Positions 37,740 to 64,000 of a stretch of 64,000 nt of DNA are shown here, piece by piece. Every line of letters begins with the position of its first letter. Positions within the stretch are counted from its first letter, which is position 1. A program made the translations under genes and the position numbers. Below the pieces are notes generated by a model. That model did not search any database, had not been told where the DNA came from, and saw only the letters and a list, made by a program, of their open reading frames with translations. The stretch is from Mayamaea pseudoterrestris (taxonomy: Eukaryota): positions 62,001-126,000 of the forward strand of contig BROI01000009.1 of the NCBI GenBank assembly GCA_027923505.1, in the 5' to 3' direction.

Positions 37740-37905
37740 CCCACTGAGGCTGGCGAGAAGTTCTCACCAGTCAAATTGCCATACCCTAAGACACAAGCCA
37801 AGCCTACCATCTTGTAGCGCAGCCTGAATAATGATGTTGGCACCATTCTGGTGTATTTTGGGCACCCACAGGGTCTGCTGTAGGGACGTTTGAAGGTCAC
37901 GGCAT
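37740..37905. repeat. Single diverged satellite-B (169-bp) monomer at the left edge of the repeat domain
   Basis: Matches the 40.4-42.0 kb monomer (gccaagcctaccatcttgtagcgcagcctgaataatgatgttggcaccattctggtg...). Confidence 0.9.
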
Positions 37906-40360
37906 GGGTTTCAGCTATTCAAACACACTCAATAACCATAGCCATGGGCCAACCAGCTTCAATATGAGTCTCTGCGGTTGCTAGCCATGCAAAAAGGATG
38001 CAGGATGTGCAATCCATTCAATGGTATACCTTTAAACCCTCCAGGAAAATGACCAGGGTTGGGTTCAGCATGGGTTTCAGCTACTCAAATACAAACACAC
38101 TCAATAGCCATAGCCGTGAGCCAGCCAGCTTCAATCTGAGTCTCTGCGGTTGCTAGGCATGCATACAGGATGCAGGATGTGCAATCCATTCAAATTTTTA
38201 CCTACACTCCTCCAGGAAAATGACCGGGGCTGGGTTTGGCATGGGTCCAGCTACTACTCAAATATAAACACACTTAATAGCCATAGCCATGTGCCAGCCA
38301 TCTTCAATATGTGTCTCTGCGGTTGCTAGGCATGCAAAAAGGATGTAGGATGTGCAATCCATTCAAATTTATACCTACAAGTCCTCCAGGAAAATGACCG
38401 GGGTTGGGTTCGGCACTAGTCCAGCTACTCGAATATAAACACACTCAATAGCCATAACCATGTGCCAGCCTGTTTCAATATGAGTCTCTGCGGTTGCTAG
38501 GCATGCAAAAAGGATGTAGGATGTGCAATCCATTCAAATTTATACCTACAACTCCTCCAGGAAAATGACCGGGGTTGGGTTTGGCATGGGTCCAGCTACT
38601 CAAATATAAACACACTCAATAGCCATAGCCATGTGCCAGCCAGCTTCAATCTGAGTCTCTGCGGTTGCTAGGCATGCATAAAGGATGCAGGATGTGCAAT
38701 CCATTCAATGGTATACCTTCAAACCCTCCAGGAAAATGACCGGGGTTGGGTTCAGCAATGGTTTCAGCTACTCAAAAACAAACACACTCAATAGCCATAG
38801 CCATGAGCCAGCCAGCTTCAAAATGAGTCTCTGCAGTTGCTAGGCATGCATAAAGGATGCAGGATGTGCAATCCATTCAATTTTATACCTACAACCCCTC
38901 CAGGAAAATGACTGGGGTTGAGTTTGGCATGGGTCCAGCTACTCAAATACAAACACACTCAATAGCCATAGCCATGTGCCAGCCTGCTTCAATATGAGTC
39001 TCTGCGGTTGCTAGGCATGCATAAAGGATGCAGGATGTGCAATCCATTCAATGGTATACCTTCAAACCCTCCAGTAAAATGACCGGGGTTGGGTTCAGCA
39101 ATGGTTTCAGCTATTCAAATACAAACACACTCAATAGCCATAGCCGTGTGCCAGCCTGCTTCAATATGAATCTCTGCGGTTGCAAGGCATGGATTAAAGA
39201 TGCAGGATGTGCAATCCATTCAAATTTTTACCTACAAACCCTCCAGTAAAATGATCGGAGTTGGGTTCAGCAATGGTTTCAGCTATTCAAATACAAACAC
39301 ACTCAATAGCCATAGCCATGAACCAGCCTGTTTCAAAATGAGTCTCTGCGGTTGCTAGGCATGGATTAAAGATGCAGGATGTGCAATCCATTCAAATTTT
39401 TTCCTACAAACCCTCCAGGAAAATGACCGGGGTTGGGTGGGGTTCGGTGGTGGCCGGCAGGCACATGGGTTTCAGCTATTCAGACACACTCAATAGCCAT
39501 AGCCATCTCCCAGCCAGCTTCAATCTGAGTCTCTGCGGTTGCTAGGCATGCATAAAGGATGCAGGATGTGCAATCCATTCAATGATATACCTTCAAACCG
39601 TCCAGGAAAATGACCGGGGTTGGGTTCAGCAATGGTTTCAGCTACTCAAATACAAACACACTCAATAGCCATAGCCAAGAGCCAGCCAGCTTCAATTTGA
39701 GTCTCTGCGGTTGCTAGGCATGCAAAAAAGAATGCAGGATGTGCAATCCATTTCAATGGTATACCTACAACTCCTCCAGGAAAATGACTGGGGTTGGGTT
39801 CGGCATGGGTCCAGCTACTCAAATATAAACACACTCAATAGCCATAGCCATGTGCCAGCCTCTTTCAATATGAGTGTCTGCGGTTGCTAGGCATGGACTG
39901 AAGATGCAGGATCTGCAATCCATTCAATGGTATACCTTCAAACCCTCCATTAAAATGACCGGGGTTGGGTTCATCAATGGTTTCAGCTATTCAAATACAA
40001 ACCACTCAATAGCCATAGCCATGAGCCAGCCTGCTTCAATATGAGTCTCTGCGGTTGCTAGGCATGGATTTAAGATGCAGGATGTGCAATTCATTCAATA
40101 ATATACCTTCAAACCCTTCAGGAAAATGACTGGGGTTGGGTTCAGCAATGGTTTCAGCTACTCAAACACACTCGCAATCAATAGCCATACCGTAGCCATG
40201 GGCGATCCAGCTTCCAATATGAGACTCTGCGGTTGCTTGGCATGGATTAATATGTAGGTTGTGCAATCCATTCGAATTTTTACCTACAAACCCTCCAGGA
40301 AAATTACCGGGGATAGGTTTAGCATGGGTTTCAGCTACTCAAATACGAACACACTCAATA
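37906..40360. repeat. Satellite A (172-bp monomer), left block, ~14 copies, heterogeneous
   Basis: Tandem copies of aatagccatagccatgagccagcctgcttcaatatgagtctctgcggttgctaggcatgc.... Confidence 0.95.
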
Positions 40361-40363
40361 CCC

Positions 40364-42040
40364 CCAGTGGGCTGAGACTGGTGACAAGTTGTCACCAAAC
40401 AAATATATCTCCCTGCGAGACAAGCAACTTAGCGCAGCCTGATTAATGATGTTGGCACCATTCTGGTGTTATTTGGGCACCTACAGGGCCTGATGTAGGG
40501 GCGTTTGAATGTCACAGCATCTGTGGGATGAGACTGGTGACAAGTTGTCACCAGATACATTGCCATTCCCTGAGACACCAGCCAAGCAAATCATCTTGTA
40601 GCGCAGCCTGAATAATAATGTTGGCACAATTCTGGTGTATTTTGGGCACCTTCTGGTCTTGCTGTAGGGGCGTTTGAATGTCACAGCATCAGCGGGCTGA
40701 GACTGGTGACAAGTTGTCACCAAATACATTGCCATCCCCTGAGACACCAGCCAAGCAAATCATCTTGTCGCGCAGCCTGAATAATAATGTTGTCACCATT
40801 CTGGTGTAATTTGGGCACCTACAGGGCCTGATGTAGGGACGTTTGAATGTCACGGCATCAGTGGGCTGAGACTGGTGACAAGTTGTCACCAAATACATTG
40901 CCATCCCCTGAGACACCAGCCAAGCCTACCATCTTGTAGCCCTGCCTGAATGATGATGTTGGCACCATTTGGGTGTAATTTGGGCACCTACAGGGCCTGA
41001 TGTAGGGGCGTTTGAATGTCACGGCATCTGCGGGCTGAGACTGGTGACAAGTTGTCACCAAATACATTGCCATCCCCTGAGACACCAGCCAAGCAAATCA
41101 TCTTGTCGCGCAGCCTGAATAATGATGTTGGCACCATTCTGGTGTAATTTGGTCACCTACAGGGCCTGATGTAGGGACGTTTGAATGTCACGGCATCAGT
41201 GGGCTGAGACTGGTGACAAGTTGTCACCAAATACATTGCCATTCCCTGAGACACCAGCCAAGCAAATCATCTTGTCGTGCAGCCTGAATAATGATGTTGG
41301 CACCATTCTGGTGTATTTTTGGCACCTACAGGGCCTGATGTAGGGGCGTTTGAATGTCACGGCATCAGCGGGCTGAGACTGGTGACAAGTTGTCACCAAA
41401 TACATTGCCATCCCCTGAGACACCAGCCAAGCCTACCATCTCGTAGCGCAGCCTGAAAAATGATGTTGGCACCATTCTGGTGTTATTTGGGCACCTATGG
41501 GGCTTGCTGTAGGGGCGTTTGAATGTCACGGCATCTGCGGGCTGAGACTGGTGACAAGTTGTCACCAAATACATTGCGATCCCCTGAGACACCAGCCAAG
41601 CAAATCATCTTGTCGTGCAGCCTGAATAATGATGTTGGCACAATTCTGGTGTATTTTGGGCACCTTCAGGTCTTGCTGTAGGGGCGTTTGAATGTCACAG
41701 CATCAGCGGGCTGAGACTGGTGACAAGTTGTCACCAAATACATTGCCATCCCTGAGGCACCAGCCAAGCCTACCATCTTGTAGCGCAGCCTGAATAATGA
41801 TGTTGACACCATTGTGGTGTATTTTGAGCACCTACAGGGCTTGCTGTAGGGGTGTTTGAATGACACGGCATCTGCGGGCTGAGACTGGTGACTAGTTGTC
41901 ACCAAATACATTGCCATCCCCAGAGACACCAGCCAAGCTTACCATCTGGTAGCGCAGCCTGCATAATGATGTTGGCACCATTCTGGTGTAATTTGAACAC
42001 CTACAGGGCCTGATGTAGGGGCGTTTGAATGTCACAGCAT
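40364..42040. repeat. Satellite B (169-bp monomer), 10 tandem copies
   Basis: gagactggtgacaagttgtcacc recurs every 169 bp (e.g. ~40697, 40866, 41035, 41204, 41373). Confidence 0.95.
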
Positions 42041-45000
42041 GGGTTTCAGTTTCAGCTATTCAAACACACTCAATAACCATAACCATGTGCCAGCCAGCTT
42101 CAATATGAGTCTCTGCGGTTGCTAGGCATGCATAAAGGATGTAGGATGTGCAATCCATTCAAATTTATACCTACAACCCCTCCAGGAAAATGACCGGGGT
42201 TGGGTTCAGCATGGGTCCAGCTACTCAAATATAAACACACTCAATAGCCATAGCCATGTGCCAGCCAGCTTCAATCTGAGTCTCTGCGGTTGCTAGGCAT
42301 GCATAAAGGATGCAGGATGTGCAATCCATTCAATGGTATACCTTCAAACCCTCCAGGAAAATGACCGGGGTTGGGTTCAGCAATGGTTTCAGCTACTCAA
42401 ATACAAACACACTCAATAGCCATAGCCATGTGCCAGCCTGCTTCAATATGAGTCTCTGCGGTTGCTAGGCATGCATAAAGGATGTAGGATGTGCAATCCA
42501 TTCAAATTTATACCTACAACTCCTCCAGGAAAATGACCGGGGTTGGGTTTGGCATGGGTCCAGCTACTCAAATATAAACACACTCAATAGCCATAGCCAT
42601 GTGCCAGCCAGCTTCAATCTGAGTCTCTGCGGTTGCTAGGCATGCATAAAGGATGCAGGATGTGCAATCCATTCAATGGTATACCTTCAAACCCTCCAGT
42701 AAAATGACCGGGGTTGGGTTCAGCAATGGTTTCAGCTATTCAAATACAAACACACTCAATAGCCATAGCCATGAGCCAGCCTGCTTCAATATGAGTCTCT
42801 GCGGTTGCTAGGCATGCATAAAGGATGCAGGATGTGCAATCCATTCAATGGTATACCTACAAACCCTCCAGTAAAATGACTGGGGTTGGGTTCAGCAATG
42901 GTTTCAGCTATTCAAATACAAACACACTCAATAGCCATAGCCATGAGCCAGCCAGCTTCAATCTGAGTCTCTGCGGTTGCTAGGCATGCATAAAGGATGC
43001 AGGACGTGCAATCCATTCACATTTTTACCTACAAACCCTCCAGGAAAATGACCGGGGTCGGGTTTGGCATGGGTTTCAGCTACTCATATACAAACACACT
43101 CAATAGCCCTAGCCACGGGCCAGCCAGCTACAATATTAGTCTCTGCCGTTGCATGGCATGGTTTAAAGATGCAGCATGTGCAATCCACTCAATGGTATAC
43201 CTTTAAACCCACCAGTAAAATGACCAGGGTTGGGTTCAGCCATGGGCCAGCTACTCAAATACAAACACTCAATAACCGTAGCCATGAGCCAGCCTGCTCC
43301 AATCAGAGTCATTGCGGTTGCTAGGTATGCATAAAGGATGCAGGATGTGCAATCCAATCAATGGTATACCTTCAAACCCTCCAGTAAAATGACCGGGGTT
43401 GGGTTCAGCAATGGGTCCAGCTACTCAAATACAAACACACTCAATAGCCATAGCCATGTGCCAGCCTGCTTCAATATGAGTCTCTGCGGTTGCTAGGCAT
43501 GCATAAAGGATGCAGGATGTGCAATCCATTCAAATTTATACCTACAACCCCTCCAGGAAAATGACCGGGGTTGGGTTCGGCATGGGTCCAGCTACTCAAA
43601 TATAAACACACTCAATAGCCATAGCCATGTGCCAGCCTGCTTCAATATGAGTCTCTGCGGTTGCTAGGCATGCATAAAGGATGCAGGATGTGCAATCCAT
43701 TCAATGGTATACCTTCACACCCTCCAGTAAAATGACCGGGGTTGGGTTCAGCAATGGTTCCAGCTATTCAAATACAAACACACTCAATAGCCATAGCCAT
43801 GAGCCAGCCTGCTTCAATATGAGTCTCTGCGGTTGCTAGGCATGCATAAAGGATGCAGGATGTGCAATCCATTCAATGGTATACCTTCAAACCCTCCAGT
43901 AAAATGACCGGGGTTGGGTTCAGCAATGGTTTCAGCTATTCAAATACAAACACACTCAATAGCCATAGCCATGAGCCAGCCTGCTTCAATATGAGTCTCT
44001 GCGGTTGCTAGGCATGCATAAAGGATGCAGGATGTGCAATCCATTCAATGGTATACCTTCAAACCCTCCAGTAAAATGACCGGGGTTGGGTTCAGCAATG
44101 GTTTCAGCTATTCAAATACAAACACACTCAATAGCCATAGCCATGAGCCAGCCTGCTTCAATATGAGTCTCTGCGGTTGCTAGGCATGCATAAAGGATGC
44201 AGGATGTGCAATCCATTCAATGGTATACCTTCAAACCCTCCAGTAAAATGACCGGGGTTGGGTTCAGCAATGGTTTCAGCTACTCAAATACAAACACACT
44301 CAATAGCCATAGCCATGAGCCAGCCTGCTTCAATATGAGTCTCTGCGGTTGCTAAGCATGCATATAGGATGCAGGATGTGCAATCCATTCAAATTTATAC
44401 CTACAGACCCTCCAGGAAAATGACCAGGGTTGGGTTCAGCGATGGTTTCAGCTATTCAGATATTAACACACTCAATAGCCATAGCCATGAGCTAGCCTGA
44501 TTCAATATGAGTCTCTGCGGTTTCTAGGCATGCATAAAGGATGCAGGATGTGCAATCCATTCAATGGTATACCTTCACACCCTCCAGTAAAATGACCGGG
44601 GTTGGGTTCAGCAATGGTTTCAGCTATTCAAATACAAACACACTCAATAGCCATAGCCATGAGCCAGCCTGCTTCAATATGAGTCTCTGCGGTTGCTAGG
44701 CATGCATAAAGGATGCAGGATGTGCAATCCATTCAATGGTATACCTTCAAACCCTCCAGTAAAATGACCGGGGTTGGGTTCAGCAATGGTTTCAGCTACT
44801 CAAATACAAACACACTCAATAGCCATAGCCATGAGCCAGCCTGCTTCAATATGAGTCTCTGCGGTTGCTAGGCATGCATAAAGGATGCAGGATGTGCAAT
44901 CCATTCAATGGTATACCTTCAAACCCTCCAGTAAAATGACCGGGGTTGGGTTCAGCAATGGTTTCAGCTATTCAAATACAAACACACTCAATAGCCATAG

Positions 45001-48000
45001 CCATGAGCCAGCCTGCTTCAATATGAGTCTCTGCGGTTGCTAGGCATGCATAAAGGATGCAGGATGTGCAATCCATTCAATGGTATACCTTCACACCCTC
45101 CAGTAAAATGACCGGGGTTGGGTTTAGCAATGGGTCCAGCTACTCAAATCTAAACACACTCAATAGCCATAGCCATGAGCCAGCCTGCTTCAATATGAGT
45201 CTCTGCGGTTGCTAGGCATGCATAAAGATCCAGAATGTGCAATCCATTCAATGGTACACCATTCAAACCCTCCAGTAAAATGACCGGGGTTGGGTTCAGC
45301 AATGGTTAGTTCTTTCAAATACAAACACACTCAATAGCCATAGCCATGAGCCAGCCTGCTTCAATATGAGTCTCTGCGGTTGCTAGGCATGCAAAAAGGA
45401 TGCAGGATGTGCAATCCATTCAATGGTATACCTTCAACCCCTCCAGTAAAATGACCGGGGTTGGGTTCAGCAATGGTTTCAGCTATTCAAATACAAACAC
45501 ACTCAATAGCCATAGCCATGAGCCAGCCTGCTTCAATATGAGTCTCTGCGGTTGCTAGGCATGCATAAAGGATGCAGGATGTGCAATCCATTCAATGGTA
45601 TACCTTCAAACCCTCCAGTAAAATGACTGGGGTTGGGTTCAGCAATGGTTTCAGCTACTCAAACACAAACACACTCAATAGCCATAGCCATGAGCCAGCC
45701 TGCTTCAATATGAGTCTCTGCGGTTGCTAGGCATGCATAAAAGATGCAGGATGTGCAATCCATTCAATGGTATACCTTCAAACCCTCCAGTAAAATGACC
45801 GGGGTTGGGTTCAGCAATGGTTTCAGCTATTCAAATACAAACACACTCAATAGCCATAGCCATGAGCCAGCCTGCTTCAATATGAGTCTCTGCGGTTGCT
45901 AGGCATGCATAAAGGATGCAGGATGTGCAATCCATTCAATGGTATACCTTCATCACACCCTCCAGTAAAATGACCGCGGTTGGGTTCAGCAATGGTTCAG
46001 CTACTCAAATACAAACACACTCAATAGCCATAGCCATGAGCCAGCCTGCTTCAATATGAGTCTCTGCGGTTGCTAGGCATGCATAAAGGATGCAGGATGT
46101 GCAATCCATTCAATGGTATACCTTCAAACCCTCCAGTAAAATGACCGGGGTTGGGTTCAGCATTGGTCGTGCTACTCAAATACAAACACACTCAATAGCC
46201 ATAGCCATGAGCCAGCCTGCTTCAATATGAGTCTCTGCGGTTGCTAGGCATGCATAAAGGATGCAGGATGTGCAATCCATTCAATGGTATACCTTCAAAC
46301 CCTCCAGTAAAATGACCGGGGTTGGGTTCAGCAATGGTTTCAGCTATTCAAATACAAACACACTCAATAGCCATAGCCATGAGCCAGCCTGCTTCAATAT
46401 GAGTCTCTGCGGTTGCTAGGCATGCATATAGGATGAAGGATGTGCAATCAATAAAAATTTATACCTACAAACCCTCCAGTAAAATGACTGGGGTTGGGTT
46501 CAGCAATGGTTTCAGCTATTTAGATACAAACACACCAAAAGCCATAGCCATGAGCCAGCCTGCTTCAATATGAGTCTCTGCGGTTGCTAGGCATGCATAA
46601 AGGATGCAGGATGTGCAATCCATTCCATGGTATACCTTCAAACCCTCCAGTAAAATGACCGGGGTTGGGTTCAGCAATGGTTTCAGCTATTCAAATACAA
46701 ACACACTCAATAGCCATAGCCATGAGCCAGCCTGCTTCAATATGAGTCTCTGCGGTTGCTAGGCATGCATAAAGGATGCAGGATGTGCAATCCATTCAAT
46801 GGTATACCTTCAAACCCTCCAGTAAAATGACTGGGGTTGGGTTCAGCAATGGTTTCAGCTATTCAAATACAAACACACTCAATAGCCATAGCCATGAGCC
46901 AGCCTGCTTCAATATGAGTCTCTGCGGTTGCTAGGCATGCATAAAGGATGCAGGATGTGCAATCCATTCAAAGTTATACCTACAGACCCTCCAGGAAAAT
47001 GACTGGGGTTGGATTCAGCAATGATTACAGCTGTTCAAATACAAACACACTCAATAGCCATAGCCATGAGCCAGCCTGCTTCAATATGAGTCTCTGCGGT
47101 TGCTAGGCATGCATAAAGGATGCAGGATGTGCAATCCATTCAATGGTATACCTTCACACCCTCCAGTAAAATGACCGGGGTTGGGTTCAGCAATGGTTTA
47201 AGCTGTTTAAATACAAACACACTCAATAGCCATAGCCGTGAGCCAGCCTGCTTCAATATGAGTCTCTGCGGTTGCTAGGCATGCATTAAGGATGCAGGAT
47301 GTGCAATCCATTCAATGGTATACCTTCAAACCCTCCAGTAAAATGACCGGGGTTGGGTTCAGCAATGGTTTCAGCTATTCAAATACAAACACACTCAATA
47401 GCCATAGCCATGAGCCAGCCTGCTTCAATATGAGTCTCTGCGGTTGCTAGGCATGCATAAAGGATGCAGGATGTGCAATCCATTCAATGGTATACCTTCA
47501 AACCCTCCAGTAAAATGACCGGGGTTGGGTTCAGCAATGGTTTCAGCTATTCAAATACAAACACACTCAATAGCCATAGCCATGAGCCAGCCTGCTTCAA
47601 TATGAGTCTCTGCGGTTGCTAGGCATGCATAAAGGATGCAGGATGTGCAATCCATTCAATGGTATACCTTCAAACCCTCCAGTAAAATGACCGGGGTTGG
47701 GTTCAGCAATGGTTTCAGCTGCTTAAATACAAACACACTCAACAGCCATAGCCATGCGCCAGCCTGCTTCAATATGAGTCTCTGCGGTTGCTAGGCATGC
47801 ATAAATGATGCAGGATGTGCAATCCATTCAATGGTATACCTTCACACCCTCCAGTAAAATGACCGGGGTTGGGTTCAGCAATGGTTTCAGCTATTCAAAT
47901 ACAAACACACTCAATAGCCATAGCCATGAGCCAGCCTGCTTCAATATGAGTCTCTGCGGTTGCTAGGCATGCATAAAGGATGCAGGATGTGCAATCCATT

Positions 48001-51000: not shown

Positions 51001-54000
51001 CACTCAATAGCCATAGCCATGAGCCAGCCTGCTTCAATATGAGTCTCTGCGGTTGCTAGGCATGCATAAACGATGCAGGATGTGCAATCCATTCAATGGT
51101 ATACCTTCAAACCCTCCAGTAAAATGACTGGGGTTGGGTTCAGCCATGGGTCCAGCAACTCAAATAGAAACACACTCAATAACCATAGCCATAAGCCAGC
51201 CTGCTTCAATATGAGTCTCTGCGGTTGCTAGGCATGCATAAAGGATGCAGGATAAGCAATCCATTCCATGGTATACCTTCAAACCCTCCAGTAAAATGAC
51301 CGGGGTTGGGTTTGCCATGGTTCCAGCTACTCAAATACAAACACACTCAATAGCCATAGCCATGAGCCAGCCTGCTTCAATATGAGTCTCTGCGGTTGCT
51401 AGGCATGCATAAAGGATGCAGGTTGTACAATCCATTCAATGGTATACCTTCAAACCCTCCAGTTAAACGACCGGGGTTGGGTTCAGCCATGGTTTCGGCT
51501 ATTCAAATACAAACACACTCAATAGCCATAGCCATGAGCCAGCCTGCTTCAATATGAGTCTCTGCGGTTGCTAGGCATGCATAAAGGATGCAGGATGTGC
51601 AATCCTTTCAATGGTATACCTTCAAACCCTCCAGTAAAATGACTGGGAATGGGTTCAGCAATGGTTTCAGCTACTCAAACACAAACACACTCAAAGCCAT
51701 AGCCATGAGCCAGCCTGTTTCAATATGAGTCTCTGCGATTGCTAGGCATGCATAAAGGATGCAGGATGTGCAATTCATTGTTTGGTATACCTTCAAACCC
51801 TCCAGGAAAATAAACGGGGTTAGTTTCAGCATGGGTATCAGCTACTCAAATACAAACACTTAATAGTCCTAGCCACGGGCCAGCCTGCCTTCAAATATGA
51901 AGTCTCGCGGTTGCTAGGCATGCATAAAGGAGCAGGATGTGCAATCCATTACAATACCTTCACACCCTCCAGTAAAATGACCAGCTGGGTGGGTTCAGCA
52001 ATGGGTTTCGCATCAAATACAAACACACTCAATAGCCATAGCCATGTGCCAGCCAGCTTCAATCTGAGTCTCTGCGGTTGCTAGGCATGCATAAAGGATG
52101 CAGGATGTGCAATCCATTCAATAGTGTACCTAAAACTCCTCCAGTAAAATGACCGGGGTTGGGTTCGTCAATGGTTTCATCTATTCAAATACAAACACAC
52201 TCAATAGCCATAGCCATGTGCCAGCAAGCTTCAATCTGAGTCTCTGCAGTTGCTAGGCATGCATAAAGGATGCAGGATGTGCAATCCATTCAAAGGAATT
52301 CCTTCAAACCCTCCAGTAAAATGACCGGGGTTGGGTTCATCAATGGTTTCATCTATTCAAATACAAACACACTCAATAGCCATAGCCATGAGCCAGCCAG
52401 CTTCAATATGAGTCTCTGCGGTTGCTAGGCATGCATAAAGGATGCAGGATGTGCAATCCATTCAATGGTATACCTACAACTCCTCCAGGAAAATGACCGG
52501 GGTTGGGTTCGGCATGGGTCCAGCTACTCAAATACAAACACACTCAATAGCCATAGCCATGTGCCAGCCAGCTTCAATCTGAGTCTCTGCGGTTGCTAGG
52601 CATGCATAAAGGATGCAGGATGTGCAATCCATTCAATGGTATACCTTCAAACCCTCCAGTAAAATGACCGGGGTTGGGTTCATAAATGGTTTCAGCTACT
52701 CAAATACAAACACACTCAATAGCCATAGCCATGTGCCAGCCATCTTCAATCTGAGTCTCTGCGGTTGCTAGGCATGCATAAAGGATGCAGGATGTGCAAT
52801 CCATTCAATGGTATACCTACAACTCCTCCAGGAAAATGACTGGGGTTGGGTTCAGCAATGCAAACACACTCAAAGCCATAGCCATGAGCCAGCCTGTTTC
52901 AATATGAGTCTCTGCGATTGCTAGGCATGCATAAAGGATGCAGGATGTGCAATTCATTGTTTGGTATACCTTCAAACCCTCCAGGAAAATAAACGGGGTT
53001 AGTTTCAGCATGGGTATCAGCTACTCAAATACAAACACTTAATAGTCCTAGCCACGGGCCAGCCTGCCTTCAAATATGAAGTCTCGCGGTTGCTAGGCAT
53101 GCATAAAGGAGCAGGATGTGCAATCCATTACAATACCTTCACACCCTCCAGTAAAATGACCAGCTGGGTGGGTTCAGCAATGGGTTTCGCATCAAATACA
53201 AACACACTCAATAGCCATAGCCATGTGCCAGCCAGCTTCAATCTGAGTCTCTGCGGTTGCTAGGCATGCATAAAGGATGCAGGATGTGCAATCCATTCAA
53301 TAGTGTACCTAAAACTCCTCCAGTAAAATGACCGGGGTTGGGTTCGTCAATGGTTTCATCTATTCAAATACAAACACACTCAATAGCCATAGCCATGTGC
53401 CAGCAAGCTTCAATCTGAGTCTCTGCAGTTGCTAGGCATGCATAAAGGATGCAGGATGTGCAATCCATTCAAAGGAATTCCTTCAAACCCTCCAGTAAAA
53501 TGACCGGGGTTGGGTTCATCAATGGTTTCATCTATTCAAATACAAACACACTCAATAGCCATAGCCATGAGCCAGCCAGCTTCAATATGAGTCTCTGCGG
53601 TTGCTAGGCATGCATAAAGGATGCAGGATGTGCAATCCATTCAATGGTATACCTACAACTCCTCCAGGAAAATGACCGGGGTTGGGTTCGGCATGGGTCC
53701 AGCTACTCAAATACAAACACACTCAATAGCCATAGCCATGTGCCAGCCAGCTTCAATCTGAGTCTCTGCGGTTGCTAGGCATGCATAAAGGATGCAGGAT
53801 GTGCAATCCATTCAATGGTATACCTTCAAACCCTCCAGTAAAATGACCGGGGTTGGGTTCATAAATGGTTTCAGCTACTCAAATACAAACACACTCAATA
53901 GCCATAGCCATGTGCCAGCCATCTTCAATCTGAGTCTCTGCGGTTGCTAGGCATGCATAAAGGATGCAGGATGTGCAATCCATTCAATGGTATACCTACA

Positions 54001-57000
54001 ACTCCTCCAGGAAAATGACTGGGGTTGGGTTCAGCAATCAAACACACTCAATAGCCATAGCCATGTGCCATCCAACTTCGATCTGAGTCTCTGCGGTTGC
54101 TAGGCATGCATAAAGAATGCAGGATGTGCAATCCATTCAATGGTATACCTACAATTCCTCCAGGAAAATGACCGGGGTTGGGTTCAGCATGGGTCCAGCT
54201 ACTCAAATATAAACACACTCAATAGCCATAGCCATGTGCCAGCCATCTTCAATCTGAGTCTCTGCGGTTGCTAGGCATGCATAAAGGATGCAGGATGTGC
54301 ATTCCATTCAATGGTATACCTTCAAACCCTCCAGGTAAATGACTGGGGTTGGGTTCAGCAATGGTTTCAGCTACTCAAATACAACCACACTCAATAGCCA
54401 TAGCCATGAGCCAGCCTGCTTCAATCTGAGTGTCTGCGGTTGCTAGGCATGCATAATGGATGCAAGGCATTCGCCATAATGGACCGGCTGGGTTCAGCAA
54501 TGGTTCCAGCTACTTCAAATACAAACACACTCAATAGCCATATCCAATAGCCAGCCAGCTTCAATTTGAGTCTCTGCGGTTGCTAGGCATGTATTAAGGA
54601 TGTAGGATGTGCAATCCATTCTAATTTATACCTATAACTCCTTCAGGAAAATGACCGGGGTTGGGTTCGGCATGGTTTCAGCTACTCAGATACAAACACA
54701 CTCAATAGCCGTAGCCATGTGCCAGCCTCCTTCAATCTGAGTCTCTGCGGTTGCTAGGCATGCATAAAGAACGTAGGATGAGCAATTGATTCAAATTTAT
54801 ACCTACAACCCCTCCAGGAAAATGACCGGGGTTGGGTTCAGCATGGGTCCAACTACTCTAATATAAACACACTCAATAGCCATAGCCATGTGCCAGCCAG
54901 CTTCAATCAGAGTCTCTGCGGTTGCTAGGCATGCATAAAGGATGTAGGATGTGCATTCCATTCAATGGTATACCTTCAAACCCTGCAGTAAAATGACCGG
55001 GGTTGCGTTCAAAAATGGTTTCAGCTACTCAAATACAAACACACTCAATAGCCATAGCCATGAGCCAGCCTGCTTCAATATGAGTCTCTGCGGTTGCTAG
55101 GCATGCATAAAGGATGCAGGATGTGCAATCCATTCAATGGTATACCTTCAAACCCTCCAGGAAAATGACTGGGGTTGGGTTCAGCAATGGTTTCAGCTAC
55201 TCAAATACAACCACACTCAATAGCCATAGCCATGAGCCAGCCTGCTTCAATCTGAGTGTCTGCGGTTGCTAGGCATGCATAAAGGATGCAGGATGTGCAA
55301 TCCATTCAATGGTATACCTTCAAACCCTCCAGTAAAATGACTGGGTTTGCGTTTAGCAACTGTTTCAGCTCTTCAAATACAAACACACTCAATAGCCATA
55401 GCCATGTGCCAGCCAGCTTCAATCAGAGTCTCTGCGGTTGCTAGGCATGCATAAAGGATGCAGGATGTGCATTCCATTCAATGGTATACCTTCAAACCCT
55501 GCAGTAAAATGACCAGGGTTGCGTTCAGCAATGGTTTCAGCTACTCAAATACAAACACACTCAATAGCCATAGCCATGAGCCAGCCTGCTTCAATATGAG
55601 TCTCTGCGGTTGCTAGGCATGGATTAATGATGCAGGATGTGCAATCCATTCAATAATATACCTCAAGCTCCGCTAGGTAAAAGGATGAGTGCATTCCATT
55701 CAATGGTATACCTTCAAACCCTGCAGTAAAATGACCGGGGTTGCCATCATAAATGGTTTCAGCTACTCAAATACAAACACACTCAATAGCCATAGCCATG
55801 AGCCCGATCGGTTGCTAGGCATATACAGGAATGGATGTGCAATCCATTCAATAATATACCTTCAAACCCTCCAGTAAAATGACCGGGGTTGGGTTCAGCA
55901 ATGGGTCCAGCTATTCAGATACAAACACACTCAATAGCCATAGCCATGTGCCAGCCATCTTCAATCTGAGTCTCTGCGGTTGCTAGGCATGCATAAAGGA
56001 TGCAGGATGTGCAATCCATTCAAATTTATACCTACAACTCCTCCAGGAAAATGACCGGGGTTGGGTTCGGCATGGGTCCAGCTACTCAAATATAAACACA
56101 CTCAATAGCCATAGCCATGTGCCAGCCAGCTTCAATCTGAGTCTCTGCGGTTGCTAGGCATGCATAAAGGATGCAGGATGTGCAATCCATTCAATGGTAT
56201 ACCTTCAAACCCTCCAGTAAAATGACCGGGGTTGGGTTCAGCAATGGGTCCAGCTATTCAGATACAAACACACTCAATAGCCATAGCCATGTGCCAGCCA
56301 TCTTCAATCTGAGTCTCTGCGGTTGCTAGGCATGCATAAAGGATGCAGGATGTGCAATCCATTCAAATTTATACCTACAACTCCTCCAGGAAAATGACCG
56401 GGGTTGGGTTCGGCATGGGTCCAGCTACTCAAATATAAACACACTCAATAGCCATAGCCATGTGCCAGCCAGCTTCAATCTGAGTCTCTGCGGTTGCTAG
56501 GCATGCATAAAGGATGCAGGATGTGCAATCCATTCAATGGTATACCTACAACTCCTCCAGGAAAATGACCGGGGTTGGGTTCGGCATGGGTCCAGCTACT
56601 CAAATATAAACACACTCAATAGCCATATCCATGTGCCAGCCAGCTTCAATCTGAGTCTCTGCAGTTGCTAGGCATGCATAAAGGATGCAGGATGTGCATT
56701 CCATTCAATGGTGTACCTACAACTCCTCCAGTAAAATGACCGGGGTTGGGTTCAGCAATGGTTTCAGCTAGTCAAATACAAACACACTCAATAGCCATAG
56801 CCATGAGCCAGCCTGCTTCAATATGAATCTCTGCGGTTGCTAGGCATGGACTAATGATGCAGGGAATGGTATACTTCAATCCAGTATTCAGAATGGTTTT
56901 TCATACAAACCACTCCAGGAAAGCCATGACCAGGGTTAGTTTCCAGAAAAGGCAGGATCCCTCAATCACAAACTCAGCACGATCAGCTACACACTCAATA

Positions 57001-59490
57001 GCCCTAGCCACGGGCCAGCCAGCTACAATAATAGTCTCTTTGGTTGCTTGGCATGTTAAAAGATGCAGGATGTGCAATCCACTCAATGGCATACCTTCAC
57101 ACCCTCCAGTAATATGACTGGGCTTGGGTGGGGTTTGGTGGTGGCTGGCAGGCACATGGGTTTCAGCTATTCAAACACACTCAATAGCCATAGCCATGTT
57201 CCAGCCAGCTTCAATCTGAGTCTCTGCGGTTGCTAGGCATGCATAAAGGATGCAGGATGTGCAATCCATTCAAATTTTAACCTTTATCTCTTCCAGGAAA
57301 ATGACCGGGGTTGGGTTCAGCAATGGTTTCAGCTATTCAAATACAAACACACTCAATAATCTGAGTCTCTGCGGTTGCTAGGCATGCATAAAGGATGCAG
57401 GATGTGCATTCCATTCAATGGTATACCTTCAAACCCTCCAGTAAAATGACTGGGGTTGGGTTCAGCAATGGTTTCAGCTACTCAGATACAAACACACTCA
57501 ATAGCCATAGCCATGAGCCAGCCTGCTTCAATCTGAGTTTCTGCGGTTGCTAGGCATGGATTAATGATGCAGGATGTGCAATCTATTCAATAATATACCT
57601 TCAAACCCTCCAGTAAAATGACCGGGGTTGGGTTCAGCAATGGGTCCAGCTATTCAAATACAAACACACTCAATAGCCATAGCCATGTGCCAGCCTGCGT
57701 CAATCTGAGTCTCTGCGGTTGCTAGGCATGCATAAAGGATGCAGGATGTGCAATCCATTCAAATTTTTACCTATAACTCTTCCAGGAAAATGACCGGGGT
57801 TGGGTTCGGCATGAATCCAGCTACTCAAATAATAACACACTCAATAGCCATAGCCATCTGCCAGCCAGCTTCAATATAAGTGTCTGCAGTTGCTAGGCAT
57901 GCATAAAGGATGTAGGATGTGCAATCCATTCAAATTTATACCTACAAGGCCTCCAGGAAAATGACCGGGGTTGGGTTTGGCTTGGGTCCAGCTACTCAAA
58001 TATAAACACACTCAATAGCCATAGCCATGTGCCAGCCAGCCTCAATCTGAGTCTCTGCGGTTGCTATGCATGGACTAATGATGCAGGATATGCAATCCAT
58101 TTAATGGTATACCTTCAAACCCTCCAGTAAAATGACCGGGGTTGGGTTCAGCAATGGTTTCAGCTATTCAAATACAAACACACTCAATAACTATAGCCAT
58201 GAACCAGCCTGTTTCAAAATGAGTCTCTGCGGTTGCTAGGCATGGGATGAGGTGCTATTCAAATTTTTCCTACAAACCCTCCACGAAAATGTTGGTGGTG
58301 GCTGGCAGGCACATGGGTTTCAGCTATTCAAACACACTCAATAGCCATAGCCATGTTCCAGCCAGCTTCAATCTGAGTCTCTGCGGTTGCTAGGCATGCA
58401 TAAAGGATGCAGGATGTGCAATCCATTCAAATTTTAACCTTTATCTCTTCCAGGAAAATGACCGGGGTTGGGTTCAGCAATGGTTTCAGCTATTCAAATA
58501 CAAACACACTCAATAATCTGAGTCTCTGCGGTTGCTAGGCATGCATAAAGGATGCAGGATGTGCATTCCATTCAATGGTATACCTTCAAACCCTCCAGTA
58601 AAATGACTGGGGTTGGGTTCAGCAATGGTTTCAGCTACTCAGATACAAACACACTCAATAGCCATAGCCATGAGCCAGCCTGCTTCAATCTGAGTTTCTG
58701 CGGTTGCTAGGCATGGATTAATGATGCAGGATGTGCAATCTATTCAATAATATACCTTCAAACCCTCCAGTAAAATGACCGGGGTTGGGTTCAGCAATGG
58801 GTCCAGCTATTCAAATACAAACACACTCAATAGCCATAGCCATGTGCCAGCCTGCGTCAATCTGAGTCTCTGCGGTTGCTAGGCATGCATAAAGGATGCA
58901 GGATGTGCAATCCATTCAAATTTTTACCTATAACTCTTCCAGGAAAATGACCGGGGTTGGGTTCGGCATGAATCCAGCTACTCAAATAATAACACACTCA
59001 ATAGCCATAGCCATCTGCCAGCCAGCTTCAATATAAGTGTCTGCAGTTGCTAGGCATGCATAAAGGATGTAGGATGTGCAATCCATTCAAATTTATACCT
59101 ACAAGGCCTCCAGGAAAATGACCGGGGTTGGGTTTGGCTTGGGTCCAGCTACTCAAATATAAACACACTCAATAGCCATAGCCATGTGCCAGCCAGCCTC
59201 AATCTGAGTCTCTGCGGTTGCTATGCATGGACTAATGATGCAGGATATGCAATCCATTTAATGGTATACCTTCAAACCCTCCAGTAAAATGACCGGGGTT
59301 GGGTTCAGCAATGGTTTCAGCTATTCAAATACAAACACACTCAATAACTATAGCCATGAACCAGCCTGTTTCAAAATGAGTCTCTGCGGTTGCTAGGCAT
59401 GGAATGAGGTGCTATTCAAATTTTTCCTACAAACCCTCCACGAAAATGCCCCGGTTCGCTCCCATTTCAGTGGTTTCTCAGATTCAAAAC
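42041..59490. repeat. Satellite A (172-bp monomer), main array, ~100 copies
   Basis: Period measured directly (atgcagga at 43681, 43853, 44025). Near-identical copies in the centre, more diverged copies at the edges. Confidence 0.97.
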
Positions 59491-59719
59491 ACTCAATAGC
59501 AGCGACACTGGGCCTGGGGGCTGGCAAGACTGTTAACACCAATGCTCTCAATAGCAGCTGCCTGGGTGATGACAGCAATCCGGTATGTCGGCTAGGACAA
59601 AGGACTGGCTGGTGGTCATTCCGGTGCAGGGGAAGCCGCGACAATTGAACACCAAGAAGATGCACCTAGAGACTTTACCTGATACGTGGGGAAATGTTGC
59701 ACGTAGAAAAGGTCGTTCG

Positions 59720-62700
59720 CCGCCCCCAAAACCCAATGAGTCGGCCAAACATCCAACTGCGAAGGGCAGAGTCTCAAATGGTGCCAAAGGACTGCCGGCG
59801 ACACCATGGTACGGCCCACGGCGGGATGGCCAAACCACAAGTTGCCGATTCTCCCAAACCATGCCCTGGCCACCCAAATACCCAATGAGTCAGGCGAAAA
59901 ATGTCCAGGGTATGCCATTGACAGGTGCAGAGTCTCAAATGGTGCAAAAGGACTGCCTGAGGCGACACCATGGGTAGGCCTCCACGGTGGGTATGGCCAA
60001 CACACAAGTTGCCGATTCTTCCTGTCAAACGCCCCATGCCCTGGCCACCCAAATACCCAATGAGTCAGGCCAAACATGTCCAGGGTATGCCATTGACAGG
60101 TGCAGAGTCTCAATGGTGCAAAAAGGACTGCCTGGAGGCTGACACCATGGGTACGGCCTCCACGGGGGGTATGGCCAACACCACAAGTTGTCGATTCTGA
60201 CCTGTCAAACGCCCCATGCCCTGGCCACCCAAATACCCAATGAGTCAGGCAAAACATGTCCAGGGTATGCCATTGACAGGTGCATAGTCTCAAATGGTGC
60301 AAAAAGGACTGCCTGGAGGCTGACACCATGGGTACGGCCTCCACGGTGGGTATGGCCAACACCACAAGTTGCAGATTCTGCCCTGTCAAACGCCCCATGC
60401 CCTGGCCACCCAAATACCCAATGAGTCAGGCAAAACATGTCCAGGGTATGCCATTGACAGGTGCAGAGTCTCAAATGGTGCAAAAAGGACTGCCTGAGGC
60501 TGACAACTGGGTACGGCCTCCACTGTGGGTAGGGCCAACACCACAAGTTGCGATTCTCCCTGTCAAACGCCCATGCCCTGGCCACCCAAATACCCAATGA
60601 GTCAGGCAAAACATGTCCAGGGTATGCCATTGACAGGTGCAGAGTCTCAAATGGTGCAAAAAGGACTGCCTGGAGGCTGACACCATGGGTACGGCCTCCA
60701 CGGTGGGTAGGGCCAACACCACACGTTCCCTACTCTACCCTGTCAAACGCCCCATGCCCTGGCCACCCAAATACCCAATGAGTCAGGCCAAACATGTCCA
60801 GGGTATGCCATTGACAGGTGCAGAGTCTCAAATGGTGCAAAAAGCAATCTCTGGATGTGGAGGCTGACACCATGGGTACAGCCTCTACTGTGGGTATGGC
60901 CAACACCACAAGTTGCAGATTCCCATGCCCTGGCCACCCAAATACCCAATGAGTCAGGCAAAACATGTCCAGGGTATGCCATTGACAGGTGCAGAGTCTC
61001 AAATGGTGCAAAAAGGACTGCCTGGAGGCTGACAACATGGGTTCGGCCTCCACTGTGGGTATGGCCAACACCACAAGTTGCGATTCCTCAAACGCCCCTG
61101 CCTGGCCACCCAAATACCAAATGAGTCAGGCAAAACATGTCCAGGGTTTGCCATTGACAGGTGCAGAGTCTCAAATGGTGCAAAAGGACTGCTGAGGTGA
61201 CAACATGGGTACGGCCTCCACGGTGGGTATGGCCAACACCACAAGTTGCAGATTCTCCCTGTCAAACGCCCCATGCCCTGGCCACCCAAATACCCAATGA
61301 GTCAGGCAAAACATGTCCAGGGTATGCCATTGACAGGTGCAGAGTCTCAAATGGTGCAAAAGGACTGCCTGAGGCTGACAACATGGGTACGGCTCCACTG
61401 TGGGTATGGCCAACACCACAAGTTGCAGATTCTTCCCTGTCAAACCCCCATGCCCTGGCCACCCAAATACCCAATGAGTCAGGCAAAACATGTCCAGGGT
61501 ATGCCATTGACAGGTGCAGAGTCTCAAATGGTGCAAAAAGGACTGCTGAAAGGCTGACACCATGGGTATGGCCTCCACTGTGGGTATGGCCAACACCACA
61601 AGTTGCAGATTCTTCCCTGTCAAACGCCCCATGCCCTGGCCACCCAAATACCCAATGAGTCAGGCAAAACATGTCCAGGGGATGCCATTGACAGGTGCAG
61701 AGTCTCAAATGGTGCAAAAAGGACTGCCTGAGGTGACAACTGGGTACGGCCTCCACTGTGGGTATGGCCAACTCCACAAGTTGCAGATTCTTCCCTGTCA
61801 AACGCCTCATGCCCTGGCCACCCAAATACCCAATGAGTCAGGCAAAACATGTCCAGGGTATGCCATTGACAGGTGCAGAGTCTCAAATGGTGCAAAACGG
61901 ACTGCCTTGAGGCTGACACCATGGGTACGGCCTCCACTGTGGGTATGGCCAACACCACAAGTTGCAGATTCTCCCTGTCAAACGCCCCATGCCCTGGCCA
62001 CCCAAATACCCAATGAGTCAGGCAAAACATGTCCAGGGTATGCCATTGACAGGTGCAGAGTCTCAAATGGTGCAAAAAGGACTGCCTGGAGGCTGACAAC
62101 ATGGGTACGGCCTCCACTGTGGGTATGGCCAACACCACAAGTTGCAGATTCCTTCCTGTCAAACGCCCCATGCCCTGGCCACCCAAATACCCAATGAGTC
62201 AGGCAAAACATGTCCAGGGTATGCCATTGACAGGTGCATAGTCTCAAATGGTGCAAAAAGGACTGCCTGGAGGCTGACAACATGGGTACGGCCTCCACTG
62301 TGGGTATGGCCAACACCACAAGTTGCAGATTCTTCCCTGTCAAACGCCCCTGCCCTGGCCACCCAAATACCCAATGAGTCAGGCAAAACATGTCCAGGGT
62401 AGGCCATTGACAGGTGCAGAGTCTCAAATGGTGCAAAAGGACTGCCTGAGGCTGACACCATGGGTAGGGCCCCCCCGTTGGGTTGGCCAACACCACAAGT
62501 TGCAGATTCTTCCCTGTCAAACGCCCCATGCCCTGGCCACCCAAATACCCAATGAGTCAGGCAAAACATGTCCAGGGTATGCCATTGACAGGTGCACACC
62601 ATGGGTACGGCCTCCACTGTGGGTATGGCCAACACCACAAGTTGCAGATTCTTCCCTGTCAAACGCCCCATGCCCTGGCCACCCAAATACCCAATGAGTC

Positions 62701-64000
62701 AGGCAAAACATGTCCAGGGTATGCCATTGACAGGTGCAGAGTCTCAAATGGTGCAAAAAGGACTGCCTGGAGGTGGAGGCTGACACCATGGGTACGGCCT
62801 CCACTGTGGGTATGGCCAACACCACAAGTTGCAGATTCTTCCCTGTCAAACGCCCCATGCCTGGCCACCCAAATACCCAATGAGTCAGGCAAAACATGTC
62901 CAGGGTATGCCATTGACAGGTGCATAGTCTCAAATGGTGCAAAAAGGACTGCCTGGAGGCTGACATCATGGGTACGGCCTCCACTGTGTGTAGGGCCAAC
63001 ACCACAACTGGCATACTTCCCTGTCAAACGCCCCATGCCCTGGCCACCCAAATACCCAATGAGTCAGGCAAAACATGTCCAGGGTATGCCATTGACAGGT
63101 GCAGAGTCTCAAATGGTGCAAAAAGGACTGCCTGGAGGCTGACACCATGGGTACGGCCTCCACTGTGGGTATGCCAACACCACAAGTTGCAGATTCATCC
63201 CCGTCAAACGCCCCATGCCCTGGCCACCCAAATACCCAATGAGTCAGGCAAAACATGTCCAGGGTATGCCATTGACAGGTGCAGAGTCTCAAATGGTGCA
63301 AAAAGGACTGCCTGGAGGCTGACACCATGGGTATGGTCTACTGTGGGTATGGCCAACACCACAAGTTGCAGATTCTTCCCTGTCAAACGCCCCATGCCCT
63401 GGCCACCCAAATACCCAATGAGTCAGGAAAAACATGTCCAGGGTAGGCCATTGACAGGTGCAGAGTCTCAAATGGTGCAAAAAGGACTGCCTGGAGGCTG
63501 ACAACATGGGTACGGCCTCCACTGTGGGTATGGCCAACACACAAGTTGCAGATTCTTCCCTGTCAAACGCCCCATGCCCTGGCCACCCAAATACCCAATG
63601 AGTCAGGCAAAACATGTCCAGGGGAGGCCATTGACAGGTGCAGAGTCTCAAATGGTGCAAAAAGGACTGCCTGAGGCTGAAAACATGGGTACGGCCTCCA
63701 CTGTGGGTTGGCCAACACCACAAGGTTGCAATCTCCTGTCAAACGCCCCATGCCCTGGCCACCCAAATACCCAATGAGTCAGGCAAAACATGTCCAGGGG
63801 ATGCCATTGACAGGTGCAGAGTCTCAAATGGTGCAAAAAGGACTGCTGAAAGGCTGACACCATGGGTATGGCCTCCACTGTGGGTATGGCCAACACCACA
63901 AGTTGCAGATTCTTCCCTGTCAAACGCCCCATGCCCTGGCCACCCAAATACCCAATGAGTCAGGCAAAACATGTCCAGGGTAGGCCATTGACAGGTGCAT
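59720..64000. repeat. Satellite C (~180-bp monomer), ~24 copies, continues beyond the window
   Basis: tgagtcaggc at 60061 and 60241; tgccattgac at 61861 and 62041. Monomer tgagtcaggcaaaacatgtccagggtatgccattgacaggtgcagagtctc.... Confidence 0.97.

Follow-up and report, generated by a model that had tools for sequence, protein, structure and literature searches.

What is understood of diatom chromosomes comes from two models with small genomes, in which centromeres are short, AT-rich, and repeat-free; episomes are designed on that basis. Satellite monomers at centromeres elsewhere include the primate alpha satellite, of about 171 bp, and Arabidopsis CEN178/180, of ~178 bp. In Phaeodactylum tricornutum, centromeres are short, low in GC, and repeat-free, and about 500 bp of low-GC DNA is required to maintain them (10.1101/096016). 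The centromeres reported to date from other stramenopiles are transposon-rich and not satellite-based (PMC11541908 and PMC7082073). Diatoms also methylate repeats: In Phaeodactylum, methylation is depleted and young transposons become de-repressed when DNMT5a is lost (PMC9998398).

Here we describe a tandem-repeat block of at least 26 kb in a diatom window (the whole 64-kb stretch of DNA that was analyzed). Judging by its sequence, the block is likely a layered stack of three unrelated satellite-DNA families in a nuclear chromosome, lying beside ordinary genes, packed as methylated heterochromatin, and growing by unequal exchange. The first-pass annotation of this DNA knew of no such architecture in diatoms, and in agreement with it we found no description of such arrays in the diatom literature searched.

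Organization of the block

The block spans 37730 to the window end (64000), 26,271 bases, and its last array is cut by that end. Profile mapping resolves the following order, with the units of all arrays arranged head-to-tail on the + strand: about one unit of satellite B, 14 of A, about 10.5 of B, 103 of A, a 222-bp linker, and at least 24 of C.

37730..37908, + strand: satellite B, ~1.06 units (profile positions 85-169 followed by 1-94), forming the left edge
37900..37941, + strand: first copy of the B-to-A junction, with B broken at about position 94-96 and followed by the tail of A
37941..40363, + strand: left block of satellite A, diverged, with 14 units of ~172 bp and a mean pairwise identity of 0.879
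40364..42043, + strand: satellite B, ~10.5 units of 169 bp, with a 17-base near-perfect palindrome in each unit
42035..42083, + strand: second copy of the B-to-A junction
42083..59500, + strand: main array of satellite A, 103 units, counting truncated units (111-153 bp) and three long ones (185-205 bp)
59501..59722, no strand: non-repeat linker, 222 bp, GC 54.5%
59723..64000, + strand: satellite C, at least 24 units of 180-181 bp, continuing past the window end

Tandem Repeats Finder reports A at 37920-54464 (period 172, 96.5 copies, 86% matches), more degenerate onward to 59401; B at 40430-42040 (period 169, 9.5 copies, 91% matches); and C in two stretches, 59766-62596 (period 181, 16 copies, 92% matches) and 62596-63999 (period 180, 7.8 copies, 94% matches). 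The profile-mapped order matches the one given at first pass (B1-A14-B10-A~100-linker-C24+), and the block itself stands; its start, placed there at 37740, moves to 37730 by profile mapping.

The A profile gave 119 matches, all on the + strand, with 112 full length and 117 units above 90 bits. Matches to the C profile numbered 25, likewise all on the + strand (22 full length). For B, 14 of the 15 matches lie on the + strand and about 11.5 units fall in the block; the single minus-strand match is the internal palindrome of B, and a 12-bit match in the flank (387-449) is probably fortuitous. A 26-base word of A occurs 67 times, versus 0 in 100 shuffles, and a chance origin of the A repeats is thereby excluded. 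Consecutive units are separated by 0-15 bp, and the largest gap in the profile mapping besides the 222-bp linker is 39 bp, which leaves no room for a transposon remnant.

The three monomers, at 169, 172, and 180-181 bp, are as distinct as first noted, when their range was given as 169-180 bp. Best local alignments between consensus dimers scored 15-22, against shuffle maxima of 22-27 (100 shuffles, both strands), and the linker did not align to A, B, or C above shuffles. With these scores inside the shuffle range, both a common origin of the three families and descent of the linker from any of them were rejected. GC content of the block is 46-54%. In each C unit, about 85 bases form an almost invariant core and the remainder is variable; unit lengths run from 141 to 187 bp, and indels are numerous.

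The core of C also contains an imperfect dyad. Single-strand folding of A, B, and C dimers was not in excess of shuffles (z of +2.0, -1.26, and -1.48), and an excess of dyads or non-B DNA was rejected on this ground despite the B palindrome and the C dyad.

Monomer lengths equal about one nucleosome repeat, and 10-bp WW periodicity was not above shuffles in the three monomers (fractions 0.41, 0.60, and 0.23). The lengths would fit one nucleosome plus linker, length being the one feature that would argue for nucleosome phasing.

The left flank is gene-dense diatom DNA: 9 of its 14 ORFs carry Pfam domains, the named relatives of a riboflavin-kinase fusion protein are all diatoms (38-55% identity), and genes come to within 600 bp of the block, at the end of 37.7 kb of gene-bearing sequence. 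Inside the block, none of the 12 longest stop-to-stop frames reaches the Pfam cut-off. This result, together with the gaps of <=39 bp outside the linker, bears out the earlier description of the block as gene-free and transposase-free. Two sampled stretches gave 0 Rfam matches at E<=1, the block as a whole gave none at gathering score, and a tRNA, 5S, or other RNA origin was set aside accordingly.

Open frames in C, of up to 269 codons and on both strands, raise the question of whether an array with a 180-bp unit (60 codons) encodes a repetitive protein, and a minus frame gives a sub-threshold Pfam match to Mpo1-like (22.6 bits versus a cut-off of 24). Repetition of a stop-free unit is, however, expected to leave frames open in several phases of both strands, and the scatter of unit lengths (141 to 187 bp), with its indels, means that no frame is kept across the array. 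The Mpo1-like score is a sum of repeated weak matches, at 13-14 bits in shorter frames and with no single passing stretch. A protein search of the same frame placed 0 of 335 candidates at E<=0.001. A coding C array is therefore extremely improbable, and a coding repeat or an Mpo1-like origin was rejected on the Pfam cut-off and the absence of relatives among those 335 candidates.

Satellite stacks beside genes are common at chromosome ends. The C array continues past the window end, and a subtelomeric domain would resemble the 98-bp satellite of Ectocarpus, which lies next to nearly all resolved telomeres (PMC11541908). Such a position is nonetheless very unlikely here: The 64-kb window holds 0 telomere repeat arrays with <=2 mismatches allowed, the telomere hexamer occurs once in the 26,271-base block, and the left side of the block is occupied by 37.7 kb of genes. 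The absence of telomere arrays from the window and the single hexamer in the block also make it unlikely that the arrays are only subtelomeric, an outcome that the first-pass annotation had allowed for.

Turnover of the arrays and abundance beyond this locus

Within the main A array, identity is distributed unevenly and three stretches stand out.

43600..51000, + strand: homogenized A core, most units 0.96-1.00 identical to the consensus and a few 0.90-0.95
51682..54038, + strand: exact tandem duplication of seven units, 51682-52859 being identical to 52861-54038 (1178 bases, period 1179)
57135..59402, + strand: exact tandem duplication of seven units, 57135-58245 being identical to 58292-59402 (1111 bases, period 1157)

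Identity of A units to the consensus is mostly 0.96-1.00 in the core and 0.56-0.97 at the edges; averaged over pairs of units, identity is 0.965 for the core (A25-A66), 0.879 for the left side, and 0.872 for the right. The second copy of the 57135..59402 duplication stops close to where the A array ends on the right. An array-wide higher-order repeat was not found in A over lags 1-15: Identity is 0.911-0.918 at 14 of the 15 lags, and the value of 0.927 at lag 7 is caused by the two local exact duplications. The two copies of the B-to-A junction agree in 133 of 152 aligned columns, with one 6-base indel, and this junction is all that the left A block and the start of the main A array have in common. 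Colinear paralogy between these two was rejected, no offset being outstanding (mean identity 0.874-0.905 at offsets 10-19). Unequal exchange and gene conversion would grow and homogenize the arrays, and could thus account for the near-identity of core units in A, the divergence of the edges, the two seven-unit duplications, and the doubled B-to-A junction.

To place the families beyond this locus, contigs of runs from two independent studies (X1 and X2) were matched to a 3.7-kb A-linker-C stretch, outside which B lies. In X1, 103,736 of 555,133 contig records match, with summed word depth of about 1.1e5 over A bins, 2.8e6 over C bins, and 156-3292 in linker bins. The corresponding figures for X2 are 13,111 of 182,933 records and depths of about 6.8e3 (A) and 2.8e5 (C). 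Summed depth, which is not copy number, is 1e2-1e4 times higher for A and C than for linker bins, and both families occur in tens of thousands of variant contigs in both runs. A and C are thus high-copy families found elsewhere in the genome, not at one locus, which weakens the earlier concern that the arrays might be confined to a single one.

Contigs with private variants have depths of 82-237 in X1 and 16-38 in X2. If these equal single-copy depth, they hint, to an order of magnitude, at 1e2-1e3 units of A and ~1e4 units of C genome-wide; the satellites are probably megabase-scale in the genome. Exact scans of metagenome contigs returned 0 loci for the 25-base invariant word of C and 0 for the 26-base word of A. 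Two further runs from the study of X1 that carry other organism labels, X6 and X7, contain, at trace depth, near-identical contigs of both A and C (465 of 812,177 and 282 of 174,311 records). For these matches, carry-over between libraries and real sharing are both possible; some loose ends of the contigs are presumably library adapters.

The two exact kb-scale tandem duplicates are of a kind that assemblers can create, and among the contigs listed none spans the A-linker-C stretch. Linker bins are covered in X1; the three linker bins lack depth in X2, as do three bins in X6, and absence of cover is no evidence. The A-linker-C join is backed by X1 only, and X1 may be the assembly's own sample. 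An assembly artefact in the arrays, or in their lengths and order, is nevertheless highly improbable. Of the sampled words of 34000-43999 (flank, B, and A), X1 contains 0.74 and X2, from a different study, 0.64; A and C appear in both runs as tens of thousands of variant contigs; the linker has its cover in X1; and a unit-to-unit divergence of 3-18% gives many assembler anchors outside the core. The artefact raised at first pass accordingly loses weight, A and C being present in contigs of two studies. Assembly quality is a practical concern in its own right, in that variant contigs collapse on these repeats in their tens of thousands.

Together, these observations identify the arrays as satellite DNA: They run head-to-tail, reach high copy beyond one locus (A and C), and are noncoding and without an RNA gene.

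CpG depletion in the three monomers

CpG observed/expected ratios are 0.24 in A, 0.34 in B, and 0.20 in C, versus 1.11 in the 37.7-kb flank, and TpG and CpA are raised in all three monomers. Since each array is in effect one monomer amplified, the sample behind the CpG statistic is three independent sequences and not 26 kb; across the three, 7 CpG are observed versus 35.6 expected, an about five-fold depletion (Poisson P about 6e-9). The linker keeps its CpG (observed/expected 0.68; 6-11 CpG per 200 bp, like the flank), and the leftmost C units retain more CpG. Surviving CpG sites are polymorphic for TG/CA, as in A column 114, where 117 units comprise 86 CG, 20 TG, and 7 CA among their states. 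Variant alleles of A are not transition-rich overall (100 transitions versus 155 transversions), so the only places where ongoing deamination shows are the CpG sites.

Methylated heterochromatin would leave a deficit of CpG and a surplus of TpG and CpA compared with neighboring DNA, and the presence of this signature beside an undepleted flank looks like the footprint of long-term cytosine methylation. The block would long have been packed as cytosine-methylated, silent chromatin, in which methyl-CpG deamination may have cost all three monomers about four fifths of their CpGs. The heterochromatin block proposed at first pass therefore gains from the CpG depletion and from the genome-wide abundance of A and C; the nucleosome phasing proposed with it does not, there being no WW periodicity.

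The centromere question and comparison with known systems

Nested within the heterochromatin reading is a more tentative proposal, which we regard as possible but unlikely: that the block or one of its layers, most plausibly the A core or the abundant C array, is a CENH3-bound centromere. If it were centromeric, the A core or the C family might form the kinetochore platform and the other layers pericentromeric heterochromatin, an arrangement to which we attach a similarly low likelihood.

Several properties favor a centromere. Monomers of 169-181 bp are of the same size class as alpha satellite in primates and CEN180 in Arabidopsis, and the block is gene-free, multilayered, and of one orientation inside a contig of about 1.09 Mb. 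Its core is homogenized with diverged flanks; such a core with diverged edges is, however, expected of any satellite array and does not discriminate. A and C are highly abundant genome-wide, which fits the rule of thumb, reportedly from Melters et al. in 2013, that centromeres are often the site of the most abundant satellite.

Other properties argue against it. Higher-order repeats, typical of primate centromeres though not universal, are absent array-wide from A, and with 10-bp WW periodicity also absent, phasing gains nothing beyond monomer length. The transposon-rich centromeres of other stramenopiles introduced above offer no satellite-based precedent. ChIP and episome assays have placed diatom centromeres in low-GC DNA without repeats (10.1101/096016), and the predicted centromeres of Fistulifera are 1.4-2 kb long, 36-42% GC, and without highly repeated elements (10.1101/2021.11.10.468027). 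Against these, the block has 46-54% GC, and the lowest 500-bp window in the 64 kb has 41%.

The Phaeodactylum-type criterion (10.1101/096016) is at least about 500 bp of low-GC DNA, with 100-bp windows of <=32% GC clustered in 3 kb. No part of the 64 kb has this composition (minimum 500-bp GC 0.412). Windows of <=32% GC form three small patches only, the largest 165 bp and none inside the block; one AT-rich patch lies just outside it.

37574..37699, no strand: AT-rich patch left of the block, 33% GC, 126 bp, too short for the diatom low-GC criterion

A low-GC centromere candidate elsewhere in the 64 kb was likewise rejected, none passing the criterion. Nor does the block lack repeats, as the Phaeodactylum type does: It is purely tandem repeat except for the linker.

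Should the centromere proposal hold, diatom centromeres would not be uniformly short, low-GC, and repeat-free, and satellite regional centromeres would have arisen or been kept in the lineage. For the low-GC rule itself, A, B, and C give a concrete case on which to judge its generality.

Among stramenopiles, the block resembles the centromeres of Ectocarpus and Phytophthora sojae (PMC11541908 and PMC7082073) in being a gene-poor repeat domain of tens of kilobases. The ECR retrotransposon candidates of Ectocarpus and the Copia-like-rich candidates of P. sojae are transposon-built, whereas the block is without transposon remnants, and tandem repeats account for only 3.5% in Ectocarpus (PMC11541908). 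The 98-bp Ectocarpus satellite is described there with telomere motifs and at chromosome ends; the block has one telomere hexamer. With the centromeres of Phaeodactylum tricornutum and Fistulifera solaris it shares the lineage and a gene-free interval inside a chromosome, and it differs from them in being at least 26 kb long, repetitive, and 46-54% GC.

Alpha satellite and CEN178/180 centromeres offer closer structural parallels: the monomer length class, one orientation over tens of kilobases, a homogeneous core with older diverged flanks, and neighboring layers of other satellites. Different here are the lack of an array-wide higher-order repeat, a composition that is not AT-rich (46-54% GC), and the absence of transposon insertions.

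The satellite heterochromatin of plants and animals provides the remaining comparison. Here, the host diatom has a compact, gene-dense genome, with genes within 600 bp of the block, and methylation and heterochromatin marks are read from sequence decay. The likenesses are extensive: nucleosome-sized head-to-tail units, several unrelated families stacked together, a homogenized core with diverged edges, internal segmental duplications, CpG decay, and high copy number. On the reading of the block as methylated satellite heterochromatin, classical satellite heterochromatin would exist in the diatom lineage, in a genome that holds abundant, nucleosome-sized, gene-free layered satellites.

Layout and non-coding character of the satellite block

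Three tandem periods were identified by Tandem Repeats Finder over the window's final 26 kb, corresponding to three satellite families designated A, B, and C.

Tandem Repeats Finder arrays
37920-54464, degenerate onward to 59401: A array, period 172 bp, 96.5 copies
40430-42040: B array, period 169 bp, 9.5 copies
59766-63999: C array, period 180-181 bp

One profile per family was built from the window sequence and then mapped back onto it. The A profile gave 119 matches (112 full length) and the C profile 25 (22 full length), all on the + strand; 14 of the 15 B matches are likewise on +, the single minus match being B's own 17-base palindrome. A 12-bit B match in the flank, the 37.7 kb to the left, looks like chance.

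Order of units from profile mapping
37730-37908, +: B, about 1.06 units
37941-40363, +: A, 14 units
40364-42043, +: B, about 10.5 units
42083-59500, +: A, 103 units
59501-59722: linker, 222 bp
59723 to window end, +: C

This mapping reproduces the order B1-A14-B10-A~100-linker-C24+ given in the first-pass annotation, over a block of 26,271 bases up to the window end, which cuts it. The monomers are distinct, as that annotation had also held: Consensus dimers of A, B, and C gave no mutual alignment above 100 shuffles on either strand, and no alignment of the linker to A, B, or C was found.

The description of the block as free of genes and transposase remnants likewise stands. Gaps between mapped units are at most 39 bp outside the linker, leaving no space for a hidden transposon remnant, and 0 of 12 frames inside the block reach the Pfam cut-off. 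Long open frames of C are present on both strands because a 60-codon unit having few stops is repeated; C unit lengths vary from 141 to 187 bp with many indels, so that every frame is broken. The top Pfam match, Mpo1-like, in the C minus frame 59616-60425 (22.6 bits summed, below the cut-off of 24), reappears in every C unit, at 13-14 bits in shorter frames. We take it as chance, since a protein search with one such frame (C minus, 61978-62556; Mpo1-like at 13.4 bits) found 0 among 335 candidates. Rfam gave no match in the block at gathering score and none at E<=1 in two sampled stretches.

CpG depletion and array turnover

The satellites are strongly depleted in CpG, with elevated TpG and CpA.

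CpG observed/expected ratios
Flank overall: 1.11
Six full 6-kb flank parts: 1.08-1.15
Last 1.7 kb of flank: 0.95
A: 0.24
B: 0.34
C: 0.20

Because each array is one amplified monomer, depletion was evaluated with each of the three monomers counted once: Together they contain 7 CpG, where the flank rate predicts 35.6 (Poisson P about 6e-9). Columns that still hold CpG also vary to TG or CA, including all four in B; A column 114 reads 86 CG, 20 TG, and 7 CA of 117, and A column 126 reads 13 CG, 9 TG, and 88 CA. The leftmost C units are CpG-richer (5, 3, 4, 3, 3, 4) than most later units, which mostly hold 1-3. The variant spectrum among units, taken whole, is not transition-rich. The CpG decay is probably a trace of long-term cytosine methylation; diatoms are described in PMC9998398 as methylating repeats via DNMT5a. 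The linker (59501-59722) has a flank-like CpG density inside the otherwise CpG-poor block and is a candidate low-copy element or unmethylated island.

A units from about 43.6 to 51 kb mostly match their consensus at 0.96-1.00, with lower values at the left (0.82-0.97) and right (0.56-0.98) edges; averaged over pairs of units, identity reaches 0.965 in this core, compared with 0.879 among the left units and 0.872 among the right ones. No array-wide higher-order repeat was found in A: Identity by lag is 0.911-0.918, with a small rise at lag 7 only, which traces to two seven-unit segments duplicated exactly in tandem (51682-52859 = 52861-54038 and 57135-58245 = 58292-59402). The B-to-A junction is present in two copies of identical monomer phase, near 37908 and near 42043, with 133/152 columns identical and one 6-base indel, and the A units beyond the two junctions show no colinearity. 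We read this as a junction that was probably duplicated long ago, with array turnover afterwards. In each C unit, about 85 bases form a nearly invariant core and the remainder is variable. Many contig records of X1 and X2, coded sequencing runs from different studies, join the C core at one fixed phase to other sequence, unlike that of the window, on both sides; loose ends of C-core contigs lie at 60031, 60211, and 61268 ("before") and 60278 ("behind") across X1, X2, X6, and X7, the last two also coded runs. These contigs suggest that a sister satellite family elsewhere shares about 67 bases of the C core. The array features are what unequal exchange and conversion usually leave in satellite DNA, and by themselves they do not reveal the array's function.

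Abundance across sequencing runs

Eight coded runs from two studies share words with 34000-43999; the fraction of its sampled words found was 0.74 in X1 and 0.64 in X2, from the other study. Contig records were then mapped to 57853-61560, comprising 10 A units, the linker, and 11 C units.

Contig evidence over 57853-61560
Matching contig records: X1 103,736/555,133; X2 13,111/182,933
Mean summed word depth, 13 A bins: X1 about 1.1e5; X2 about 6.8e3
Mean summed word depth, 14 C bins: X1 about 2.8e6; X2 about 2.8e5
Summed depth, linker bins: X1 1673, 3292, 156; X2 0
Private-variant contig depth: X1 82-237; X2 16-38

Summed word depth is not a copy number; two X1 linker bins are roughly 10-20 times deeper than the third. 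As an order of magnitude only, A numbers 1e2-1e3 units and C 1e4 units (about 2 Mb or more), taking private-variant contigs as single-copy depth and counting multi-fitting contigs at each place. A and C are thus genome-wide families, C being far more abundant. The concern that A and C might be confined to a single locus or be an artefact of one assembly is answered by their abundance in contigs of two studies.

A 354-letter X1 contig at depth 203 connects A to C in opposite orientation (58377 / 60385), which places an inverted A/C junction at another site of that genome or on its second haplotype. X6 and X7, which carry other organism labels within X1's study, contain near-identical A and C contigs at trace depth. 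Either library carry-over or satellites common to these organisms could account for them; in some, the loose ends resemble what we take to be library adapters.

Chromosomal setting and the centromere question

The left 37.7 kb is gene-dense: Pfam domains occur in 9 of 14 long ORFs, including a P-type ATPase, a glycosyltransferase, a riboflavin kinase fusion, and Mut7-C, alongside one tRNA. For the riboflavin-kinase fusion protein, 264 relatives pass E<=0.001, and all names among the matches listed are diatoms (Seminavis, Chaetoceros, Thalassiosira, Fistulifera, Amphora, Cylindrotheca, and Entomoneis), so the genome was correctly called diatom-like; identities of only 38-55% imply that a close sequenced relative is absent. 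The entry for this protein itself is placed on a contig of 1,088,187 bases, telomere repeats are absent from the window, and the block looks interstitial, not terminal.

Several flank features are recorded here. ORF 25211-27058 (-) fuses a class-I methyltransferase domain to the riboflavin kinase domain, a layout precomputed for most of the best 120 of the 264 relatives. ORF 28286-33325 (+; 1679 aa) has as its sole Pfam match a weak ABC_tran near the C-terminus (27.2 bits), the greater part of its length being unassigned. Two long ORFs then precede the block: 33368-35695 (-; 775 aa) combines endonuclease/exonuclease/phosphatase and Mut7-C RNase domains, and 36204-37121 (305 aa) has no Pfam match. 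A 126-bp AT-rich patch at 37574-37699 (33% GC) adjoins the block's left edge and is far below the length of the diatom low-GC centromere criterion.

Satellite heterochromatin is a long-established class of DNA. Full-text searches of a literature library with few subscription journals found no paper on diatom satellite arrays. We regard the block as a real, well-built satellite example, of a known kind in a lineage from which it is not known to have been described. Its interest is moderate by itself and would be high only if CENH3 sits on it.

The first-pass annotation had offered the block as a satellite centromere or nucleosome-phased heterochromatin. Monomers of nucleosome size, an interior location free of genes, homogenisation of the core, layered families, and abundant satellites all fit a candidate centromere, a reading that we consider unlikely. 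In the satellites, 10-bp WW periodicity does not exceed shuffles, and no excess of foldable dyads was found. Other stramenopile centromere candidates are presented in PMC11541908 and PMC7082073 as transposon-built, and the predicted Fistulifera centromeres in 10.1101/2021.11.10.468027 are short (1.4-2 kb), of lower GC (36-42%), and described as lacking highly repeated elements. Unlike Phaeodactylum-type centromeres, which 10.1101/096016 maps by CENP-A ChIP and episome assays to low-GC regions described as repeat-free, with about 500 bp of low-GC DNA sufficient, the block is a tandem repeat of 46-54% GC, and across all 64 kb the GC minimum over 500 bp is 41%.
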